NCBI GenBank assembly: GCA_964016885.1
Contig: CAXHJY010000367.1
Location: 1-47,372, forward strand
DNA length: 47,372 bases
Direction of reading: 5' to 3'
DNA from: Eledone cirrhosa
Lineage: Eukaryota
This document shows, piece by piece, positions 5,437-47,372 of this stretch. The translations under genes and the position numbers were made by a program. A model generated the notes under the pieces. It was not told the origin of the DNA. It saw only the letters and a list, made by a program, of their open reading frames with translations, and searched no databases. How positions within the stretch are numbered: the stretch's first letter is position 1; every line of letters begins with the position of its first letter.

Positions 5437-6982
5437 CTGTGGCGGAACTCACTAGATGCTGGATATGTGCCAGAAAACCTTCTATCCCAGTCTGTTGTCC
5501 CAGTTTTCAAAAAGGGAAACAAATCCCTTGCCGTGAATTACCGTCCAATCTCACTCACCTCTCATATCATTAAGGTATTTGAGCGAGTGGTGAGATCGCG
5601 AATGACCCACTTCCTTGAGAGTAACAATATGCTGAACTCCAACCAGCATGGATTCCGTAATGGAAGGGATTGCCTGACGCAACTACTGCATCACTTTGAT
5701 GACATTTTGAGAGCCTTGGGAGAGAGTTCCAACACTGATGTTATCTACCTTGATTTCAGCAAGGCCTTTGACAGGGTTGATCATAACATTCTACTGAGAA
5801 AGCTGTCCAATATTGGTGTCACTGGAAAGCTGCTGCAGTGGATCAAGAGCTTCCTGTCAAACAGAACCCAACATGTTGTAGTTGAGGGAGTCAAATCAAG
5901 CCAGCCAAAGTCAGTAGTGGAGTCCCACAAGGCACTGTGTTGGGCCCACTTCTCTTCATCATCTATATTAATGACATCACTGACATCATCAAACACAGCA
6001 ACATTAACATTTTCGCTGATGATTCCAAGCTCCAAAAGGTCATCAATGGCGTGGATGACCGGATAAGCCTTCAGTCAGACCTACTGGCTGTTACCCAATG
6101 GGCAGAAAAGAACAACATGTTACTGAACGAAGACAAATTCGAACTGATCCACTTTGGAAAAGAGGATGCTCTGAAACTCCCGTACTCCCCTTCCCTCCGG
6201 GGAAACTCTCGTGGCATCTAACAACATCAGAGACTTGGGAGTAACCGTGGACAGCAACATAAGCTGGACCACGCATATAAGCAGCAAAGTTGACATGGCC
6301 CGCAGAATGTGTTCCTGATCCTCAGAACCTTCCAGTCGAGAGATTCCCGCACCATTATCCTTCTCTTCTCTACTTTCGCCCGACCACACCTTGAATACTG
6401 TTGTCCACTGTGGTCTCCCACACGAAACAAAGTATCATGAAACTTGAAGCTCCTCAAAGGGCAATCACGAAAAAGATAGATGGCATGTCAGACTTGACTA
6501 CTGGGTCGATTGGAAAACCTGAAACTTTACTCACTCCAACGTCGCCGTGAGCGTTATATTATCTGCATGATGTGGAAAATGTTCCATCATCACTGCCCAA
6601 ATGATGTTGGCATCGCCTTCAAGATACACCCAAGGCTTGGGCCCCGTGCTATCCGTCCCATTCAAAAATCTAAATCGCAACTCATAACAACAATACGGCA
6701 CAATTATTTCACCTCAATCGGCCCTGCTCTCTTCAACATCACACCAGGACACGTCAAAACAGAAACTGACCACACAAAATTCAAGAAGTCTTTGGACAAA
6801 TTCCTCCAAGTAATCCGGACAAACCACCCACACCCGGATATGTCTCCGCAAACAATAATTCTCTTCTCGAATGGGCCATGGTGCCCAAATCCTGAATTGA
6901 AAGACTTCGCCAGGTGGTGCTATTAAGTTAGACATGGCCTGGGCCAATACTGGCCAAAACATTTCAAAGTTATTCAAAGTTA
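5437..6982 (+). mobile_element. 5'-truncated, frameshifted CR1-clade LINE (reverse transcriptase and 3' end)
   Basis: RT motifs spread over several frames: [68 protein letters not shown], then RPHLEYCCPLWSP and LYSLQRRRER. Ends in a short tandem tail (TTCAAAGTTA)x2 joined to (TA)n. Confidence 0.92.
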
Positions 6983-6989
6983 TATATAC

Positions 6990-7114: not shown

Positions 7115-7175
7115 CATATATATACATATATATATATATACATATATATATATACATATATATATATATACATAT

Positions 7176-7783
7176 GTCAGGTCACCAGTTGGTGCTACTG
7201 GTAACATGTATCCCAGTACAACCTGTCCCATGGTCGGGTCGTTGGCGACTAAACTGGCAACCCCACCAAGGTTTCTTGGTGAGGAGGGTGACTTTGGACA
7301 TCCTGCAGGACTAAAAACAAAACCTGTCAAAGGGCAAAGGAGCTCTTAAGAGTCAATAGCCATCCAAAATCACCGGGAGAGATGACCCCTTAGCCTTTGT
7401 CAAGGCAGAATTCTAGGAGAAGGAAAACTCTGATATAACACCTGCAACCCTGATGGTATCCAATGATGTTGACTTGTTCTTCTTTTTGGTAAATATCATC
7501 TTTGTTAAGAGAGTGGGACTGGCTTTGTGCAGTGCCTTTGCTCACTATAAAAGCTTCACGGCACAGGCATTGCTTTATATCTGGAGATCTCTCTGCACTT
7601 GTCGTCACATGGTACCATGGGCCCAGCACTATGTGTCAGTAATTGTCACAAGTGTAGTGTTTGTACCAGAGTTTTCAAGTCGCTGGCTGGACTAAAAAGT
7701 CACACGCGTTCAGCGCATCGGTAGGGGTTCTCCTACATGGATATAAAGTAGTGGCCGTACTCGAAAACGAGTTGGCAGCCACC
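7176..7783 (+). mobile_element. Short non-autonomous RTE-derived element (5'UTR-like part fused to an RTE 3' end)
   Basis: Contains CTAGGAGAAGGAAAACTCTGA (~7413-7433), a motif I recall from RTE 5'UTRs. 7653-7724 encodes [23 protein letters not shown], the C-terminal C2H2 finger typical of RTE ORFs. A short hairpin CTCG-AAAA-CGAG precedes the 3' end. Flanked by (TA)n on both sides. Confidence 0.65.
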
Positions 7784-11163
<3,380 letters not shown>

Positions 11164-11411
11164 TAACTTTGAATAACTTTGAAATGTTTTGGCCAGTATT
11201 GGCCCAGGCCATGTCTAACATAATAGCACCACCTGGCGAAGTCTTTCAATTCAGGATTTGGGCACCATGGCCCATTCGAGAAGAGAATTACTGTTTGCGG
11301 AGACATATCCGGGTGTGGGTGGTTTGTCCGGGATTACTTGGAGGAATTTGTCCAAAGACTTCTTGAAATTTGTTTGGTCAGTTTCTGTTTTGACGTGTCC
11401 TGGTGTGATGT
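11164..11411 (-). mobile_element. 3' terminal fragment of the same CR1 LINE family, inverted
   Basis: Reverse complement of ~6736-6982 with only a few differences. Encodes [11 protein letters not shown]...[27 protein letters not shown] and has the same (TTCAAAGTTA)x2 tail. Confidence 0.92.
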
Positions 11412-25742: not shown

Positions 25743-27452
25743 ATACAAACATAAATTATCGAGATTCGCATTTCGGCCCACGAAATAACGAAAAACAACC
25801 TCCGAGATGTAAGGCAAGTGCTCAAAGATTCAGATGAACCAGACCTATAACAAACGTTAAAGGCCAAACACACTGAGACGATGGTTAAACAATCATTTGC
25901 ATAGCCAAAAAAAAACGATCAAGTAATTCGGGTATTGAAAATTTACCGGGACCCCTGGAAGGTTGGTAAAATCCAGTATATGGGTTTCTACGGCTCCTAA
26001 ATCAAGTACCGTCCGCTTACATAAATAATGTCTGGCTTCTGGTAAGATGATTGAACAAGGAAGCCACTTTCTCAATAGGTTTTAGTTCAATGTTAATACA
26101 AGGACTGACTATTGCTGACCCCACGTGGGGATCGGCAAGGGAGGCAATCCCTATATCAGGCGAATGAATTCAGTTGTGTATATTTTTGCACGAATGCAAA
26201 AACATCACAAATCGAATAGAGTTCTCAACAGAAGGGTTAAAATTAACATAAGCTATTCATCAGTCAATAGAATCAACTATAAAATCAAGAAAATTAACTG
26301 GTCAATAGCTAGAGTCTGGAGAATAATACAAACATAAATTATCGAGATTCGCATTTCGGCCCACAAAATAACGAAAAACAACCTCCGAGATGTGCGGCAA
26401 GTGCTCAATGATTCAGATGAACCAGAGCTATAACAAACGTTAAAGGCCAAACACACTGAGACGATGGTTAAACGATCATTCGCATTTTGGGAGGAGCCGG
26501 CTGGGGACAATACTGTACCCACATTTTGATTAATGTCCAAGAAACGCCGTGTCATGCTTGTACGACTCCAATGCAGATATACAAACTTTAACTTCACATT
26601 ATTTTTCTCAAATCCTTCTACACACAAACCTTGTACGACTCCAATGCAGATATACAAACTTTAACTTCACATTATTTTTCTCAAATCCTTCTACACACAA
26701 ACCTTAATAATTTTTCTCTTCGTTAATTTTGAAATTGCCACAATACTTATCAACATACACCTTTTTGACGTTAGAATATTCATCCACAATTATTATTTTT
26801 TCTCTCTATCTTCATACATAAACACCCTTTCTTTCCTCGTAAATATTTTTCCCTTCGTTAATTTTCAAATTCTTTTAATTTATACATTATCTTCCAACGG
26901 TTCTCAACCTCTCTATGTAAAACAATATATCTTTTCTCAGTTATAAAAACTATCTCTTTCTCTCTATCACCCATCTCTCCCTCTCCACCTTCACTCTCAT
27001 CTCCTCCCCCTTTTTTCATCCTTTCCACCCCCCATCCCTAAATAAAATATTTTTTCCTCGTACATATCTTTCCCTTCGTTAATTTTCAAATTCTTTTAAT
27101 TTATACATTATCTTCCAACGGTTTTCAACCTCTCTATGTAAAACAATATATCTTCTCTCAGTTATAAAAACTATCTCTTTCTCTCTATCACCCATCTCTC
27201 CCTCTCATCTCCTCCCCTTTTTCATCCTCCCCCCCCCCTCTCTAAATAAAATATTTTTCCCAATATCACACATCAATCTAAAACCACTTTTCATATGTTG
27301 ATTTAAAACTGCACTATCCACAAGTGTTTTTTAGCCTTCATATCATGTTCTCCTGTTTTATCTGATGAAAACACAAATATTATTGCATGATGATGTTTGT
27401 TTTTGAAATGCGCATAATAAAATACATGAAACTCCTTTAACCATCTTTTGAT

Positions 27453-27456
<4 letters not shown>
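25743..27456 (+). mobile_element. Decayed Penelope-like element (PLE) 3' region: GIY-YIG endonuclease remnant, repeat-rich 3'UTR/pLTR and hammerhead
   Basis: Frame-broken peptides in the expected order: GY*KF, VSTAPK, EAIPIS, NSVVYIF (from 26167), SNRVLNRRVK, KKINWSIAR, EPEL. These resemble PLE linker/GIY-YIG motifs (NGYP.KF, VP.K, KD.LP, S.VVY.F, T.R.L..R, INSSI..HL, KP.L). A canonical HHR follows at 27354-27424. Internal direct repeats: 25743-25902/26326-26485, a 73-bp dimer at 26557-26705, and a ~220-bp dimer from 26836/27056. Confidence 0.55.
27354..27424 (+). ncRNA. Type I hammerhead ribozyme, family C (PLE-associated)
   Basis: Stem I UGUUUUAU/AUAAAAUA; CUGAUGA 27362-27368; 16-bp stem II (15/16 paired) with GCAU loop; GAAA 27405-27408; palindromic stem III AUGCGCAU; predicted AUA cleavage after 27416. 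Confidence 0.85.
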
Positions 27457-27526
<70 letters not shown>

Positions 27527-27659
27527 TATATATATATATATATAGATATATAGATATAGATATATATAGAGATATATATATATATATAGAGATATATATA
27601 TATATATAGAGATATATATATATATATATATAGAGAGAGATATAGAGAGATATATATAT

Positions 27660-27722
<63 letters not shown>

Positions 27723-27934
27723 TATATATATATATATATATATATAGATATATATATATATATATATATATAGATATAGATATATATATATATATATATA
27801 TATATAGATATATATATATATATATATATAGATATATATATATATATATATATATATAGATATAGATATATATATATATAGATATAGATATATATATATA
27901 TATATATATATATAGATATATATATATCTATATA

Positions 27935-27970
<36 letters not shown>

Positions 27971-27996
27971 TATATAGATATATATATAGATATATA

Positions 27997-28058
<62 letters not shown>

Positions 28059-28179
28059 TATATATATCTATATATCTATATATCTATATATATATATATA
28101 TATATATATAGATATATAGATATATATATATATATATATCTATATATATATATATATATATATATATAGATATATAGAT

Positions 28180-28214
<35 letters not shown>

Positions 28215-28248
28215 TATATATAGATATATATATCTATATATCTATATA

Positions 28249-28282
<34 letters not shown>

Positions 28283-28308
28283 TATATAGATATATATATA
28301 GATATATA

Positions 28309-28345
<37 letters not shown>

Positions 28346-28369
28346 ATATATATATATATATATATATAT

Positions 28370-28402
<33 letters not shown>

Positions 28403-28482
28403 TATATATATATATATATAGAGATATATATATATATATATAGAGATATATATATATATATCTATATATATATATATATATA
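27457..28482. repeat. (TA)n microsatellite with TAGA/TCTA interruptions
   Basis: Direct inspection. Confidence 0.97.
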
Positions 28483-28518
28483 TATTATTATTATGTAATA
28501 AACAACATAAGGCAATTA

Positions 28519-28578
28519 TTCCATTTACCAGTGGTTTCTTAAAAGCAAAAGGTTTTGCTTTCAATCCTCAGAATGAAA
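28519..28578 (-). ncRNA. Type I hammerhead ribozyme, family B (mirror copy)
   Basis: Exact reverse complement of 28680-28739. Confidence 0.78.
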
Positions 28579-28679
28579 AATCCTGGTTTGTTTATTGAAT
28601 ATGGATTCTAAAAACAAGAATGCAATCATAGATTGCATTTTTGTTTTTAGAATCCATATTCAATAAACAAACCAGGATT

Positions 28680-28739
28680 TTTCATTCTGAGGATTGAAAG
28701 CAAAACCTTTTGCTTTTAAGAAACCACTGGTAAATGGAA
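28680..28739 (+). ncRNA. Type I hammerhead ribozyme, family B
   Basis: Stem I UUUCAUU/AAUGGAA, with distal AAUAAACAA/UUGUUUAUU pairing; CUGAGGA 28687-28693; 11-12-bp stem II UUGAAAGCAAA/UUUGCUUUUAA; GAAA 28720-28723; stem III ACC-acu-GGU; predicted GUA cleavage after 28732. Confidence 0.78.
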
Positions 28740-28840
28740 TAATTGCCTTATGTTGTTTATTACATAATAATAATAATTAAGCTCTGTTGCATACATAGAG
28801 CACTCTTTTTTCCTGGACTTTTCCGATGGAATTACTTCAT

Positions 28841-29830
28841 ATATATATATATATATATAGATATAGATATATATATATATATCTATATATATATATATAT
28901 ATATATATAGATATATATATAGATATATATATATATATCTATATATCTATATATATATATATATATATATATCTATATATCTATATATATATATATATAT
29001 ATAGATATATATATAGATATATATATATATATCTATATAGATATATATATATATATAGATATATATATATATATAGATATATATATATATATCTATATAT
29101 CTATATATATATATATAGATATATATATATATATAGATATATATATATATATCTATATAGATATATATATATATATAGATATATATATATATATAGATAT
29201 ATATATATATATCTATATATATATATATATAGATATATATATATATATCTATATATCTATATATATATATATAGATATATATATATATATAGATATATAT
29301 ATATATAGATATATATATATATATAGATATATATATATATAGATATATATCTATATATATATATATAGATATATATCTATATATATATATATATATATAG
29401 ATATATATCTATATATATATATATAGATATATATCTATATATATATATAGAGATATATATCTATATATATATATAGAGATATATATCTATATATATATAT
29501 AGAGATATATATCTATATATATATATATATATAGATATATATCTATATATATATATATAGATATATATCTATATATATATATAGAGATATATATCTATAT
29601 ATATATATAGAGATATATATCTATATATATATATAGAGATATATATCTATATATATATATAGAGATATATATCTATATATATATATAGAGATATATATCT
29701 ATATATATATAGAGATATATATCTATATATATATAGAGAGATATATATCTATATATATATAGAGAGATATATATCTATATATATATAGAGAGATATATAT
29801 ATATATATAGAGAGATATATATATATAGAG

Positions 29831-29861
<31 letters not shown>

Positions 29862-29880
29862 TATATATATATATATATAT

Positions 29881-29929
<49 letters not shown>

Positions 29930-30134
29930 TATATATATATATATATATGTATAGATATATATATATATATATATATAGATATATATATATATAGATATAT
30001 ATAGATATATATATATATATATATATAGATATATATATATATATATAGATATATATATATATATATATAGATATATATATATATATATATAGATATATAT
30101 ATATATATATAGATATATATATATATATATATAG

Positions 30135-30207
<73 letters not shown>

Positions 30208-30385
30208 TATATATAGATATATATATAGATATATATATATCTATATATATATATCTATATATATATATCTATATATATATAGAGATATATATATATATAG
30301 AGATATATATATATCTATATATATATATCTATATATATATATCTATATATATATATCTATATCTATATATATATATCTATATATC

Positions 30386-30432
<47 letters not shown>

Positions 30433-30568
30433 ATATATATATATCTATATATCTATATATCTATATATATATATATCTATCTATATATTTATATCTATAT
30501 ATCTATATATCTATATATATATATAGATATATATAGATATATAGATAAATATATATATATAGATATAT
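28841..30568. repeat. (TA)n/TAGA/TCTA microsatellite with a ~26-bp higher-order unit at ~29330-29800
   Basis: Repeating AGAGATATATATCTATATATATATAT-like unit. Confidence 0.93.
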
Positions 30569-30985
30569 AATTAAGTTAAAAATGTACATCCACATATGTA
30601 TACTGAAATACTAGTATGCATATGAATACACACACGTGTACATATGTAGATGTACCGAGTTTTCACTGGTCACTTTACTGTGAGTGTCCAGCTATTCTGT
30701 ATGTAGACACACAGACAAACCGGTTCTTAGAGTCATACTGGTTTTTGAGGAAACACCTTTCCTGTATTCTCCAGAAAGCCAGACAAGGAATATTGGACTA
30801 GTTTCGATGTTGTTACATCTCATCAGCAATATTTACCTATCTTCCGGCTTCTCTAGAGAATCGTGAAAGCACATATCGTTATATGCTTTTTCTATGAAAA
30901 TTAGTAGTGGGCAGACCAATTTGCACAGAGCGTGAGTACGTACCGGTTCAACGGAGACGATAAAAACAAATAACGAAACGAAATT
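30569..30985 (-). mobile_element. Inverted partial copy of the 465-bp retrozyme unit (left arm of the 835-bp palindrome 30569-31403)
   Basis: Reverse complement of 30987-31403 about axis 30986; one mismatch seen (30764/31208). Confidence 0.95.
30789..30833 (-). ncRNA. Type I hammerhead ribozyme, family A (inverted copy)
   Basis: Reverse complement of 31139-31183. Confidence 0.9.
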
Positions 30986-31138
30986 TAATTTCGTTTCGTT
31001 ATTTGTTTTTATCGTCTCCGTTGAACCGGTACGTACTCACGCTCTGTGCAAATTGGTCTGCCCACTACTAATTTTCATAGAAAAAGCATATAACGATATG
31101 TGCTTTCACGATTCTCTAGAGAAGCCGGAAGATAGGTA

Positions 31139-31183
31139 AATATTGCTGATGAGATGTAACAACATCGAAACTAGTCCAATATT
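31139..31183 (+). ncRNA. Type I hammerhead ribozyme, family A, unit 1
   Basis: Stem I AAUAUUG/CAAUAUU (extended by 31112-31136 pairing with 31184-31205); CUGAUGA; stem II GAUGU-aaca-ACAUC; GAAA; palindromic stem III ACUAGU; predicted GUC cleavage after 31176. Confidence 0.92.
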
Positions 31184-31603
31184 CCTTGTCTGGCTTTCTG
31201 GAGAATAGAGGAAAGGTGTTTCCTCAAAAACCAGTATGACTCTAAGAACCGGTTTGTCTGTGTGTCTACATACAGAATAGCTGGACACTCACAGTAAAGT
31301 GACCAGTGAAAACTCGGTACATCTACATATGTACACGTGTGTGTATTCATATGCATACTAGTATTTCAGTATACATATGTGGATGTACATTTTTAACTTA
31401 ATTGTTTAAGCGTCAGTCATACAAAAGTGAGTTACAAACGAAACGAAATTTAATTTCGTTTCGTTATTTGTTTTTATCGTCTCCGTTGAACCGGTACGTA
31501 CTCACGCTCTGTGCAAATTGGTCTGCCCACTACTAATTTTCATAGAAAAAGCATATAACGATATGTGCTTTCACGATTCTCTAGAGAAGCCGGAAGATAG
31601 GTA

Positions 31604-31648
31604 AATATTGCTGATGAGATGTAACAACATCGAAACTAGTCCAATATT
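31604..31648 (+). ncRNA. Type I hammerhead ribozyme, family A, unit 2
   Basis: Identical to unit 1; cleavage after 31641. Confidence 0.92.
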
Positions 31649-32068
31649 CCTTGTCTGGCTTTCTGGAGAATAGAGGAAAGGTGTTTCCTCAAAAACCAGT
31701 ATGACTCTAAGAACCGGTTTGTCTGTGTGTCTACATACAGAATAGCTGGACACTCACAGTAAAGTGACCAGTGAAAACTCGGTACATCTACATATGTACA
31801 CGTGTGTGTATTCATATGCATACTAGTATTTCAGTATACATATGTGGATGTACATTTTTAACTTAATTGTTTAAGCGTCAGTCATACAAAAGTGAGTTAC
31901 AAACGAAACGAAATTTAATTTCGTTTCGTTATTTGTTTTTATCGTCTCCGTTGAACCGGTACGTACTCACGCTCTGTGCAAATTGGTCTGCCCACTACTA
32001 ATTTTCATAGAAAAAGCATATAACGATATGTGCTTTCACGATTCTCTAGAGAAGCCGGAAGATAGGTA

Positions 32069-32113
32069 AATATTGCTGATGAGATGTAACAACATCGAAA
32101 CTAGTCCAATATT
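32069..32113 (+). ncRNA. Type I hammerhead ribozyme, family A, unit 3
   Basis: Identical to unit 1; cleavage after 32106. Confidence 0.92.
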
Positions 32114-32533
32114 CCTTGTCTGGCTTTCTGGAGAATAGAGGAAAGGTGTTTCCTCAAAAACCAGTATGACTCTAAGAACCGGTTTGTCTGTGTGTCTACA
32201 TACAGAATAGCTGGACACTCACAGTAAAGTGACCAGTGAAAACTCGGTACATCTACATATGTACACGTGTGTGTATTCATATGCATACTAGTATTTCAGT
32301 ATACATATGTGGATGTACATTTTTAACTTAATTGTTTAAGCGTCAGTCATACAAAAGTGAGTTACAAACGAAACGAAATTTAATTTCGTTTCGTTATTTG
32401 TTTTTATCGTCTCCGTTGAACCGGTACGTACTCACGCTCTGTGCAAATTGGTCTGCCCACTACTAATTTTCATAGAAAAAGCATATAACGATATGTGCTT
32501 TCACGATTCTCTAGAGAAGCCGGAAGATAGGTA

Positions 32534-32578
32534 AATATTGCTGATGAGATGTAACAACATCGAAACTAGTCCAATATT
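32534..32578 (+). ncRNA. Type I hammerhead ribozyme, family A, unit 4
   Basis: Identical to unit 1; cleavage after 32571. Confidence 0.92.
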
Positions 32579-32998
32579 CCTTGTCTGGCTTTCTGGAGAA
32601 TAGAGGAAAGGTGTTTCCTCAAAAACCAGTATGACTCTAAGAACCGGTTTGTCTGTGTGTCTACATACAGAATAGCTGGACACTCACAGTAAAGTGACCA
32701 GTGAAAACTCGGTACATCTACATATGTACACGTGTGTGTATTCATATGCATACTAGTATTTCAGTATACATATGTGGATGTACATTTTTAACTTAATTGT
32801 TTAAGCGTCAGTCATACAAAAGTGAGTTACAAACGAAACGAAATTTAATTTCGTTTCGTTATTTGTTTTTATCGTCTCCGTTGAACCGGTACGTACTCAC
32901 GCTCTGTGCAAATTGGTCTGCCCACTACTAATTTTCATAGAAAAAGCATATAACGATATGTGCTTTCACGATTCTCTAGAGAAGCCGGAAGATAGGTA

Positions 32999-33043
32999 AA
33001 TATTGCTGATGAGATGTAACAACATCGAAACTAGTCCAATATT
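32999..33043 (+). ncRNA. Type I hammerhead ribozyme, family A, unit 5
   Basis: Identical to unit 1; cleavage after 33036. Confidence 0.92.
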
Positions 33044-33463
33044 CCTTGTCTGGCTTTCTGGAGAATAGAGGAAAGGTGTTTCCTCAAAAACCAGTATGAC
33101 TCTAAGAACCGGTTTGTCTGTGTGTCTACATACAGAATAGCTGGACACTCACAGTAAAGTGACCAGTGAAAACTCGGTACATCTACATATGTACACGTGT
33201 GTGTATTCATATGCATACTAGTATTTCAGTATACATATGTGGATGTACATTTTTAACTTAATTGTTTAAGCGTCAGTCATACAAAAGTGAGTTACAAACG
33301 AAACGAAATTTAATTTCGTTTCGTTATTTGTTTTTATCGTCTCCGTTGAACCGGTACGTACTCACGCTCTGTGCAAATTGGTCTGCCCACTACTAATTTT
33401 CATAGAAAAAGCATATAACGATATGTGCTTTCACGATTCTCTAGAGAAGCCGGAAGATAGGTA

Positions 33464-33508
33464 AATATTGCTGATGAGATGTAACAACATCGAAACTAGT
33501 CCAATATT
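33464..33508 (+). ncRNA. Type I hammerhead ribozyme, family A, unit 6
   Basis: Identical to unit 1; cleavage after 33501. Confidence 0.92.
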
Positions 33509-33802
33509 CCTTGTCTGGCTTTCTGGAGAATAGAGGAAAGGTGTTTCCTCAAAAACCAGTATGACTCTAAGAACCGGTTTGTCTGTGTGTCTACATACAG
33601 AATAGCTGGACACTCACAGTAAAGTGACCAGTGAAAACTCGGTACATCTACATATGTACACGTGTGTGTATTCATATGCATACTAGTATTTCAGTATACA
33701 TATGTGGATGTACATTTTTAACTTAATTGTTTAAGCGTCAGTCATACAAAAGTGAGTTACAAACGAAACGAAATTTAATTTCGTTTCGTTATTTGTTTTT
33801 AT

Positions 33803-36638
<2,836 letters not shown>

Positions 36639-37165
36639 ATAATGTAGGAGGTGAGTTTTATTGTAGTACAATAAAGCAATGCAGATATCGGATAAGAAGC
36701 ACTCTACAGTTTGTGGGACTGGAGTATGCATAATATAAGATCAAAAGATGGTTAAAGGAGTTCCATATATTTTATTATGCGCATTTCAAAAACAAACATC
36801 ATCAAGCAATAATATCTGTGTTTTCATCAGATAAAACAGGAGAACATGATATGAAGGCTAAAAAACACTTGTTGATAGTGCAGTTTTAAATCAACATACG
36901 AAAATGGTTTTAGATTGATGTGTGATATTGGGAAAAATATTTTATCTAGAGAGGGGGGGGAGGATGAAAAGGTAAGGAGACGAGAGGGAGAGATGGGCGA
37001 CAGAGAAAAAGAGATAGTTTCCACAACTGAGAGGAGACATATTTTTTACACAGAGGGGTTGAAAACGCTGGAAGATACTGTATGAATTAAAATTTTGAAA
37101 ATTAACGAAGGGAGGATATGTGCGAGGAAAAAATATTTCATTTAGGGAGGGGGGGTGGAAAGGAA
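36639..37165 (-). mobile_element. PLE pLTR-like HHR cassette (family C), inverted copy 1
   Basis: Diverged reverse-complement homologue of ~27019-27456, extending ~95 bp further at its 3' end. Confidence 0.8.
36768..36838 (-). ncRNA. Type I hammerhead ribozyme, family C
   Basis: Minus strand: UGUUUUAU CUGAUGA aaacacagauauuauu-gcuu-gaugauguuuguuuuu GAAA UGCGC AUA^AUAAAAUA; cleavage at 36776/36775. Confidence 0.85.
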
Positions 37166-39956
<2,791 letters not shown>

Positions 39957-40485
39957 ATAATGTAGGAGGTGAGTTTATTGTAGTACAATAAAGCAATGCA
40001 GATATCGGATAAGAAGCACTCTACAGTTTGTGGGACTGGAGTATGCATAATATAAGATCAAAAGATGGTTAAAGGAGTTCCATATATTTTATTATGCGCA
40101 TTTCAAAAACAAACATCATCAAGCAATAATATCTGTGTTTTCATCAGATAAAACAGGAGAACATGATATGAAGGCTAAAAAACACTTGTTGATAGTGCAG
40201 TTTTAAATCAACATACGAAAATGGTTTTAGATTGATGTGTGATATTGGGAAAAATATTTTATCTAGAGAGGGGGGGGGGGGATGAAAAGGTAAGGAGACG
40301 AGAGGGAGAGATGGGCGACAGAGAAAAAGAGATAGTTTCCACAACTGAGAGGAGACATATTTTTTACACAGAGGGGTTGAAAACCGCTGGAAGATACTGT
40401 ATGAATTAAAAATTTTGAAAATTAACGAAGGGAGGATATGTGCGAGGAAAAAATATTTCATTTAGGGAGGGGGGGTGGAAAGGAA
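39957..40485 (-). mobile_element. PLE pLTR-like HHR cassette (family C), inverted copy 2
   Basis: Near-identical to 36639-37165, with the same two breakpoints. Confidence 0.8.
40085..40155 (-). ncRNA. Type I hammerhead ribozyme, family C
   Basis: Identical to 36768-36838; cleavage at 40093/40092. Confidence 0.85.
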
Positions 40486-45477
<4,992 letters not shown>

Positions 45478-47372
45478 TTTCTTTTATTTGCCACTAGGGC
45501 ATCAAAAGTGGGACAAGTACAAAGGGGGGAGTTTACACAAAAAGGCGTCCTCAATAAGGAGGAGGCAATAACAAAATATAAAAATAAAATAAGATATAAC
45601 AAAAAATAAAATTTTTAACAAAATCCTCAATAGAGAGGAGGCGCCTTGGGGGGTCGCACACACCCCCGAAAAAAGTGTGCAACCCTTCTCCTCAGGAGCA
45701 CAGAGAAGGGGTGCTCCCTTGGTCTTTCATCTTCCTCACCTATAGTCTGATGTAGAGTGAAGGCCCATTCACACGGGCCATTCTCGCCACTTTCACCCAT
45801 CTTTCATAGAAACGGCTGGGGTGCAGCACCTCTCTCTCCATCCTGATCCTTCTTCCGAAATGATATCGGAAGAAACGGACCAGTTGTTGGCCAGAGAGAA
45901 AGGTGCCCGACCTCAGTCCTTTCAGACGTGTCCACCATACAACCTCTTTCGCCATGGCTATTACGCACAGAAACACCGCCTCTGCTTCATCTTTGAAGGG
46001 GGGAGGCGGCTTGATCATTACAATAGACTCGGTGGTCAACCGGATCGGTCCCACCCTTGACAGCAGTTGTTCGACATAGCCCCACAGATCGGCTACGCCC
46101 GAGCAGTGTACTAATGCGTGTGCAACGGTTTCCTCGTCGCACACGCATCTGGGACAGATCTTTTGGCGGGGTCCCTACCCGGGCGCCCGTGTCTGTAGAG
46201 CCTTTCTCGAACGGGTAAAGCCCCTCGGTAGCACTGCCAGGCCAGGGACTTCTGGAAGTTGTCCATAGGTCCCGGCTGAATGTCCTACCGAAAAGGCTGG
46301 CCAGTTCGTCCTCCTCCATGTCTAGGGCTTCTCCGAGGGCGTCGTCGCACCTGCTGCGTACCAGCCCTCTATAGAATGTTGCGGTGGAGTCTCCACTGAT
46401 AACCGGATCCGCCTGCCAGAGGGCGGTGAGCGCCTGGGCACACTCAGTGTGCCAGGCGCCCAGTTTTCTCGGTCTTTGCTTGACCCAGGATTGCAGCTCG
46501 GTGAGTGAGACGAGTCTGGGAAAGGTTCGTCTCACAAACGAGGCCCACACCGGTTGTCCGGTGAGGAATACGTAGAGGTGCCGTAGCCTTAATGCGTGTT
46601 TACGCATCATTAGCCACGGCATCCCCAGCCCTCCTTTCGAAGGGTGTTGACAGCAGATGGATCTCCTCACCATAGGAGCCCGCCTCTTCCAAAGGAATTG
46701 GAAGAGCGCGCGCTCCATCTTGGTGAGGGTTTCCCTTGGGCAGGGCACTACGGTCAGGCGGTAGTAGATGACGGACGCTATGTAGGTGTTCGCCACCTCC
46801 GCCCGACCTTTCAGGGATAGTTTGCAACTGGCCCACTTCTGGGTCAGTGCAAACACTCTGTTCGTAACCTCCGCCCAGTTTTTCTCCACCTGGAGGTCCG
46901 GTCCGAACCAGACCCCGAGCAACTTCACCGGGCCCTCCGTCCAGCGTCCGACGACGCTATCGGAGGGCATCGGTCTGCCCCTCCACGTGCCGAGTTGCAA
47001 ACCGATCGACTTGTCCCGGTTCAGCTTAGCCCCTGTGAACTTTTCGTACTCCTCCAGTAAGGTGCCGACCGCCTCGATTTCGGAGGCCGTCGACACCATT
47101 ACTGTCACGTCATCGGCGTAGGCCGACACCGCTTTCCGCAATCCCGGTTCCAAAGGGATGCCCTGCAACAACTCCAACTTCCGCAGTAGTGGCTCGAGAG
47201 TCAATACATACAGAAGGGAGGAGAGAGGGCACCCTTGTCGGATGGACCGCGCGATTTTGAACGGCTCCGAGAGGTAGCCGTTCACCTTGACCCTAGAGCA
47301 GATGCGGCTGCTGTGCATAGCAGTGATCCAGCCCCTGAAAACGGGTCCGAAGGGTAACCATGGTCGACCCTA
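45478..47372 (-). mobile_element. Tx1/L1-clade LINE, 3' half (RT, C-terminal CCHC finger, 3'UTR); frameshifted and truncated by the window edge
   Basis: RSIRQGCPLSSLLYVLTLEPL, AYADDVT, LNRDKS, VKLLGVWF, LSLKGRA, KGGLG; in another frame CPRCECDEETVAHALVHC, with stop at 45740. AATAAA at 45488-45483 lies directly before the junction with (TA)n. Short deletion between RVDHGY and FGP near 47352. Confidence 0.9.

Follow-up and report, generated by a model that had tools for sequence, protein, structure and literature searches.

Paired fixed termini in inverted insertions of a retrozyme-type repeat from Eledone cirrhosa and their probable origin by asymmetric twin priming

The window analysed here is a complete, unplaced and (TA)n-rich contig of 47,372 bp from the 3.0-Gb assembly of Eledone cirrhosa, in which a tandem array of a short non-coding repeat is headed by an inverted arm. 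The outer end of this arm is a fixed second terminus (site B), common to hundreds of insertions, while the forward array stops at another fixed terminus (site A). From its sequence, the locus is probably a young non-autonomous retrozyme insertion, produced by a Penelope-like RT/GIY-YIG protein through asymmetric twin priming. What carries this reading is a quantitative rule, according to which an inverted insertion has one A end and one B end and derives from one template, with some pairs of arms that could not have been copied from each other.

Unit positions are counted from 30972 (position 1), where a 465-bp periodicity begins exactly; it stops at 33802, i.e., at unit position 41, after 6.09 units, and the six full units, which start at 30972, 31437, 31902, 32367, 32832 and 33297 and are followed by a last start at 33762, show no differences among them (Table 1). 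On the unit map the hairpin occupies positions 1–29, the hammerhead core begins at 175, its GUC ends at 205 and the array ends at 41. Ahead of the array lies a real palindrome at the unit's own hairpin, as the original prediction had it, with its axis at 30986 (T), pairing from 30985/30987 outward to 30569/31403, a total length of 835 bp and a single mismatch at 30764/31208; the arms measure 417 bp each, the 416 bp given before being the same arm minus one loop-flanking base. The presence of the hairpin in every unit, and the end of the array 12 nt after it and not at the ribozyme cut site, were also correctly described. The outer end of the inverted arm (30569) corresponds to unit position 432, and the self-complementary homology at the junction amounts to 29 nt. 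The hairpin region (31395–31485) folds with z = –3.8, and the whole unit folds much better than its shuffled versions (z = –9.2). The insertion has no coding region and contains no RT/GIY-YIG ORF.

Table 1. Features of the insertion and of its flanks in the window (forward-strand positions).
Feature	Position	Strand	Remark
Left flank, (TA)n with AG interruptions, insertion target	27455–30568	.	
Candidate target-site duplication, left copy, 12 nt	30558–30569	+	again at 33800–33811
Inverted arm, unit 432 down to 16 (0.9 unit)	30569–30985	–	outer end = site B
Hammerhead motif, copy in the inverted arm	30789–30833	–	core at 30826, minus strand
Hairpin, unit 1–29, 13-bp perfect, common to both arms	30972–31000	.	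axis 30986
Forward arm, 6.09 identical units	30972–33802	+	ends at site A
Type I hammerhead motif, unit 1, every 465 bp	31139–31183	+	pattern, predicted
Site B inside unit 1 (unit 429–437)	31400–31408	+	ends cluster at 432, 434, 437
"Tail", site B to next site A (~70–75 nt), hairpin inside	31409–31477	+	
Site A end (33802) and candidate target-site duplication, right copy	33800–33811	+	
Right flank, (TA)n with AG interruptions	33803–45478	.	

The unit carries a type I hammerhead motif, called by pattern from its conserved core and consisting of a stem I of 7 bp, the core CUGAUGA, a stem II of 5 bp, GAAA and a very short stem III; in unit 1 the core begins at 31146 (unit 175) and GUC finishes at 31176 (unit 205). 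The pattern of core, stems I and II and GUC, which is of the minimal type, is present in all six units (6/6) and in the inverted arm. Rfam at gathering score gave no match, the window hammerhead included, and the MFE fold of the motif alone did not yield the active fold. By these features, namely short tandem non-coding units, a predicted hammerhead in each of them, and dispersal over many contigs (1816 A-end junctions) in insertions that, where parsed, lack LTRs and coding regions, the element is of the non-LTR retrozyme type and set in (TA)n. Junctions between the hammerhead cut site and (TA)n are absent genome-wide (0 copies), and 7 of 102 inner junction ends lie close to the cut site (p = 0.047). 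In public contigs the unit end is joined to the unit start in 4/4 runs of unrecorded kind, a join that tandem DNA gives likewise. Across the public runs X1–X20, whose kinds are also unrecorded and none of which is listed as RNA, the complete unit or a portion of it is found in 16 studies that differ in organism code, and in X4 and X5 it forms a single contig of 495–496 nt closing on itself.

The genome holds at least 300 matches of the unit (28 of the 538 candidates were scored), and arrays reach ~30 units. Twenty other fully locatable arrays, picked by whole-unit similarity and not by their ends (set 1), all run at their sense 3′ end into (TA)n at unit 40–41 (site A) or 429–437 (site B). Two divergent arms are present in 14 of these arrays, and 13 of the 14 combine an A with a B end, with no A+A and no B+B pair; L032 was completed by L067, and L047 has an A end and an end in unrelated DNA. 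Exact junctions of unit 41 with (TA)n number 1816 genome-wide, and those of site B with (TA)n 583 on the forward strand alone, the reverse rows being redundant. The pairing of the two sites was also assessed from coordinates among the matches listed (100 per pattern), which cover C1 to 143.8 Mb and comprise 92 A and 62 B ends: 31 outward-facing pairs lie within 20 kb of each other, and 29 of them are A+B, one is A+A and one B+B (29/31, p = 8e-8 vs 48%).

A larger sample was parsed on chromosome 1, consisting of 80 of 122 loci (all 30 pairs below 9.5 kb, 30 of 32 unpaired B ends and 20 of 60 unpaired A ends), with L051 and L052, which had been chosen as pivots, excluded from the counts. The parser returned 55 A+B and 2 B+B insertions. 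Further A+B insertions were added where a second arm of 7–21 nt was recognized by eye or by extension (L114, L116, L121, L143, L144), where a foreign insert of 65 nt stands at the junction (L105), and where longer stretches were retrieved (L153, L154, and L112 with L145, which are one insertion with a B arm of ~30 units); L125 is a double inversion of type B+B, and L084, considered as an A+A pair, was rejected as two separate insertions. With both ends resolved, 64/67 insertions are A+B, 3/67 are B+B and 0/67 are A+A, and the tail, i.e., the stretch from site B to site A, is found at only one end of an inverted insertion. The remaining 12 loci comprise the 8 one-armed ones (8/80) and others that are ambiguous, masked or joined to other elements (L133, L136, L138, L155). 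Among the public contigs listed for run X1, which may come from the assembly's own sample, loose (TA)n ends occur at 31403 and 31408 (site B) and at 31477 (site A), and run X8, from another study, has a loose (TA)n end at 31477 (site A).

Target duplications, mostly of 11–13 nt, were found in 15 of the 34 A+B insertions with interrupted flanks, some of the 15 being weak, and 1000 shuffled pairings gave a mean of 4.9 and a maximum of 12; in the window the duplication is weak because its motif is common in the flanks. Priming from both nicks of a staggered cut would produce duplications of this kind. The insertions have an inverted, 5′-truncated arm, a tail at one end (the 64/67 A+B insertions), (TA)n on both sides and a short duplication, as in Penelope-like elements (PLEs). 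The idea of a Penelope-like footprint holds for the repeat, which is of retrozyme type with Penelope-like marks, but not for the fold-back at the hairpin, which is not the rule of the family (see below).

The ends at sites A and B are observed, and by analogy with an in vitro result on a PLE protein they would be the starts of reverse transcription. In that system the anole protein PAc, a predicted dimer, cuts and extends both strands, and reverse transcription starts at two internal sites bounding the tail; the start site does not differ between strands in vitro and the two sites are not linked within one molecule, later integration steps being unvalidated in the portion of that work available (PMC11167929). 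The earlier assignment of the RT start to the hairpin agrees with this as far as site A is concerned, which lies next to the hairpin, is fixed family-wide and is best read as a start, but it missed the second fixed terminus, site B. Alternatively, A and B could be points of endonuclease resolution, at which GIY-YIG would cut a multimeric double-stranded or cruciform intermediate that is then ligated into (TA)n. Such a process would be expected to leave fixed ends on both sides; the tail is ascribed to EN-mediated resolution in the text available of one study (PMC8557442), and according to another the tail is required for recognition by the Penelope EN (PMC11167929). The latter, however, maps both tail boundaries as RT start sites, both ends share 1–4 nt with the (TA)n primer, and a prior step would be needed to form the head-to-head junction, even between arms without common sequence. 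Resolution is for these reasons an unlikely origin of the two sites.

The hairpin is a hot spot of inversion junctions and not the general axis of inversion. Exact hairpin pivots, window included, number 16 with a 47-nt pattern and 24 with a 35-nt pattern genome-wide, the latter being ~100-fold the ~0.24 expected from independent uniform ends, and they account for ~1% (24/1816) to 8% (5/64) of insertions. All 15 other pivots of the 47-nt pattern are A+B, L063 having been completed by a longer stretch. A seamless hairpin pivot is found in 0/13 A+B arrays of set 1, and 4 of the 55 parsed A+B insertions of chromosome 1 pivot at unit 1–29, on which grounds the hairpin was rejected as a general axis: in other copies the termini are fixed (A and B), but the axes are scattered. 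Junctions are near-symmetric, at palindromic parts of the unit, in 9/55 cases (p = 0.01), and asymmetric in 46/55, with uniform offsets (KS p = 0.59) and joins that show microhomology (25, mean 2.8 nt), are blunt (7) or contain short inserts (14). With the pivots removed, the pooled junctions show no significant excess close to the hairpin (p = 0.09 and 0.31), and stalling of RT at the hairpin outside the pivots was accordingly rejected. At the exact pivots the A arm measures only 40–41 nt in 8/16 cases, and the B arm is below one unit in 12/16, as it is in the window. Other junction structures include the capture of a 65-nt GC-rich foreign sequence between the A and B arms (L105:499–563) and same-strand template jumps with short templated duplications near the junctions (L037, L045 and L139), the jump from unit 185 to 70 occurring twice in L037.

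The inverted arm had originally been explained by a snap-back, in which the cDNA starts near the hairpin, ends in the hairpin and there self-primes the second strand, that is, the inverted arm. Self-priming has already been proposed for Penelope (PMC3846280), and the excess of seamless pivots (24 vs 0.24), the near-symmetric junctions and the variants shared by the two arms would fit it, the window arm being short enough for a copy. As a general rule of the family it is refuted by the 46/55 asymmetric junctions with their uniform offsets and by the 14/55 A+B insertions in which neither arm can be copied from the other; in L123, L142 and L147 the divergent arms share 0–3 positions, that is, no sequence. 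Since, with L051 and L052 included, only a copy of B from A is possible in 28/57 insertions and only a copy of A from B in 15/57, snap-back would need each site to act both as a start and as a precise stop. Moreover, an A arm of 40–41 nt, as in half of the pivots, cannot have templated the long arm. A copied arm needs no site B end, but the window and 15/15 other pivots end at the partner site, and the enrichment at the hairpin is equally predicted by annealing between cDNAs: cDNAs that have the same polarity can form long duplexes only in self-complementary parts of the unit, so a hot spot arises without self-priming. Snap-back is on the whole improbable. For the window locus alone it is possible: the arm is shorter than the array, the locus taken by itself could accommodate a copy of the adjacent unit, and the arm-only 237C is undecisive between a copy and a separate cDNA, though the end of the arm inside the site B interval would then be a 2% coincidence (11/465 positions).

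Both arms of one insertion derive from one template. Arm differences have a median of 0.47% within an insertion as against 3.4% between insertions (n = 60), and in 44 of 60 cases no other arm lies closer than the partner. In the window, 75G is present in all six units and in the inverted arm (30926), which has in addition one change of its own (30764, unit 237); elsewhere 75G occurs in only one array, of a subfamily 16 changes away, and this C20 array was rejected as the parent of the window copy (16 differences, period 466). Private variants span all units also in the arrays L041, L050 and L039. Because such variants are common to all units and to both arms, a monomeric circle is the probable template; a homogeneous multimeric source transcript from outside the assembly could alternatively yield uniform variants.

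A palindrome at this place might also be a later product, formed when replication folded back, or recombination took place, at the hairpin of an ordinary tandem array already inserted; inverted duplications are known to begin at perfect hairpins. A duplication of this sort would be expected to extend into flanking DNA or to end at random, but the actual end is site B on (TA)n, and target duplications flank both ends, which makes a later origin very unlikely. The chance that the palindrome is an assembly or library artefact, i.e., a fold-back chimeric long read, is slighter still. The window corresponds to an entire unplaced contig of 47 kb with much (TA)n, and the public short-read contigs, which cannot show absence, contain no strand-switch joint among those listed; a fold-back read, however, would mirror the whole array and not 0.9 unit up to site B, the two arms differ by one mismatch, and 23 other loci pivot as the window does, most of them on large chromosomes and in subfamilies 88–98% alike.

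In the preferred reading, asymmetric twin priming, the (TA)n target would be cut on both strands with a stagger of ~10–12 nt, as judged from the duplications, and each free 3′ end would start a cDNA on the same RNA, one priming at site A (unit 41), immediately 3′ to the hairpin, and the other at site B (429–437), ~74 nt upstream. Each reaction would run for 0.02 to ~30 units, probably around a monomeric circle, as the common variants suggest. The two cDNAs, being of the same polarity, would join head to head, mostly through 0–9 nt of microhomology or with short scars, self-complementary parts of the unit being the preferred places; each would then be lengthened using the other as template, and repair would follow. 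In the window, the cDNA primed at A would have reached 6.09 units and the B-primed one would have stopped at its first encounter with the hairpin, the two 3′ ends annealing through the hairpin arms to give the seamless 835-bp palindrome. We infer that both target ends prime, that the RNA is a circle and that the protein is a PLE dimer. A broader proposal, to which we give even chances, is that this is the normal route of endonuclease-bearing PLEs and their retrozymes, with one (probably dimeric) RNP, a single RNA (a circle in retrozymes), one fixed start site for each side of the staggered cut and rolling-circle multimers from both.

A young, active PLE of the same genome (1836 first-look candidates) has (TA)n as its target and two kinds of end, 60 nt apart, with one of each in 11/12 inverted pairs, and its ORF family (L068–L081) is separate from the retrozyme. 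The protein of the full-length copy is 1268 aa long and shows RT motifs, a CX4CXXC linker and GIY-YIG, and the element carries a type I hammerhead of its own; the protein domains were called from motifs by eye and from the CX2-5CxxC linker described in PMC8557442, and following that description the element appears Neptune-like. Pfam found no family in the 1268-aa protein, and PDB gave a weak GIY-YIG match only (1mk0, E 0.16). An intact 1268-aa ORF lies at L081:1346–5152 (G000:C1, ~154.96 Mb); its RT is preceded by a long low-complexity insert rich in N, T and H, which recalls the asparagine-rich inserts reported in PMC3846280. Since the unit has no significant similarity to this PLE (best E 0.48, with one autonomous family compared), the PLE displays the pairing rule and is at most a candidate partner, and as the sequence parent of the unit it was rejected. 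In L031 a retrozyme arm is joined directly to the ORF of this PLE: an 8.5-unit arm with an A end stands head to head with it at L031:9140/9141 (G000:C613), and the PLE part is 99.5% alike to the full-length copy, the contig stopping before the PLE end. This is possibly a twin-primed chimera of two RNAs. L155, considered as another retrozyme–PLE chimera, was discarded, its ORF belonging to an old, stop-ridden element of another type. At least two further PLE-like families are present in the genome.

A sister family bearing a hammerhead aligns across the whole unit and ends at the two homologous places (five loci, by eye); the hairpin preceding site A is conserved in it, apart from one base pair in which both partners differ. 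It was seen at L043:60–410, L115:1–150, L118:1–125, L131:1–200, L167:5470–5740 and L181:2970–3209, and in L167 its inverted insertion continues into seven units of the window family, possibly by a template switch between families.

Other repeats surround the insertion in the window. Inside the left (TA)n tract, positions 28483–28838 (axis 28629) hold a second, unrelated inverted insertion, a ~300-bp palindrome on a short self-complementary motif with one arm ~60 nt longer; it represents the 3′ terminus of a different young family, with 2004 first-look candidates, which has PLE-like ORFs beside some copies and the same long/short architecture as the retrozyme insertion. Two direct copies of a 540-bp repeat fragment lie 3318 bp apart in the right tract (36644–37183 and 39962–40503) and are related to the element that ends at the left tract, with a reverse copy at ~27019–27450. 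Frameshifted LINE-type RT fragments and other repeats are nested in (TA)n at 5438–6985, 7175–7790, ~10969–11411 and 45478–47372; the last of these lies on the minus strand, and the end of the contig truncates it. A 160-bp direct repeat occurs at 25743–25902 and 26326–26485, 583 bp apart, and is followed by an exact 73-bp tandem duplication at 26557–26705.

The origin of the inverted repeats and one-sided tails of PLEs, and the way in which animal retrozymes return to DNA, are stated to be open in the available texts on both (PMC8557442; PMC11167929; PMC7229834; bioRxiv 10.64898/2026.07.22.740005). With thousands of insertions that are very young and have a short unit, this genome allows arms, ends and junction to be read in one coordinate system, and in this light the window palindrome is a rare, seamless special case. 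If true, one rule would explain why pLTRs are inverted, why the tail is one-sided, why junctions are palindromic and why tandem arrays come ready-made, and may account for the long-puzzling inverted structure of Penelope-type elements; it would also be direct genomic evidence for retrozyme circles as PLE templates.

With the metazoan non-LTR retrozymes (PMC7229834; bioRxiv 10.64898/2026.07.22.740005), as far as their accounts were available, the element has in common the AT-rich, non-coding tandem units with a type I hammerhead each, the thousands of dispersed dimers to multimers and the co-occurrence of PLEs, with a unit of 465 bp as against 220–390 bp in the metazoan examples. Retrozyme circles have been proposed as templates of tandem cDNA, with PLEs as candidate helpers (Cervera and de la Pena, 2020; PMC7229834), and retrozymes have been described as non-autonomous PLE derivatives, with the mechanism left open (Li, Clavereau and Pollet, 2026; bioRxiv 10.64898/2026.07.22.740005). 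The latter authors favour local amplification after PLE insertion, whereas the present arrays look inserted ready-made. The available text of these two works contains no mapping of termini, inversions or targets, and the terms "inverted" and "target site" have 0 occurrences in that of PMC7229834.

With PLEs, in the portions available of PMC3846280, PMC8557442 and PMC11167929, the likeness extends to head-to-head inverted insertions, the tail at one end, AT or (TA)n targets, duplications of ~8–12 bp and two internal 3′ termini. The tail is on one of the inverted pLTRs, with junction palindromes read as self-priming on an antisense template (PMC3846280), or often at one end only and ascribed to EN resolution, with a (TA)n bias (PMC8557442). 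It is ~74 nt here and 60 nt in the local PLE, against 30–40 nt in published PLEs, and unlike in these it is carried by a non-coding multimer. The explanations published for PLEs are self-priming or EN resolution, and the in vitro paper, in its available part, does not link one start site to each end (PMC11167929). Two start sites and one-sided tails are already published, and the pairing rule is apparently unstated.

This rule discriminates the self-priming and EN-resolution models from twin priming and predicts a specific result in the existing in vitro system. The original twin priming model for L1 is reportedly that of Ostertag and Kazazian from 2001, and in L1 the process happens only now and then, and the internal place at which the second primer acts varies. 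Both target ends there prime on one RNA, and the cDNAs are joined by microhomology, giving an inversion within the target duplication (PMC2837659, available part). The application of twin priming to PLEs, as well as a rule of one site per end, are absent from the literature searched, which lay mainly outside subscription papers and supplements. Compared with L1 twin priming, inversion is here the usual outcome, the two starts lie at fixed places, and multimers can make up both arms.
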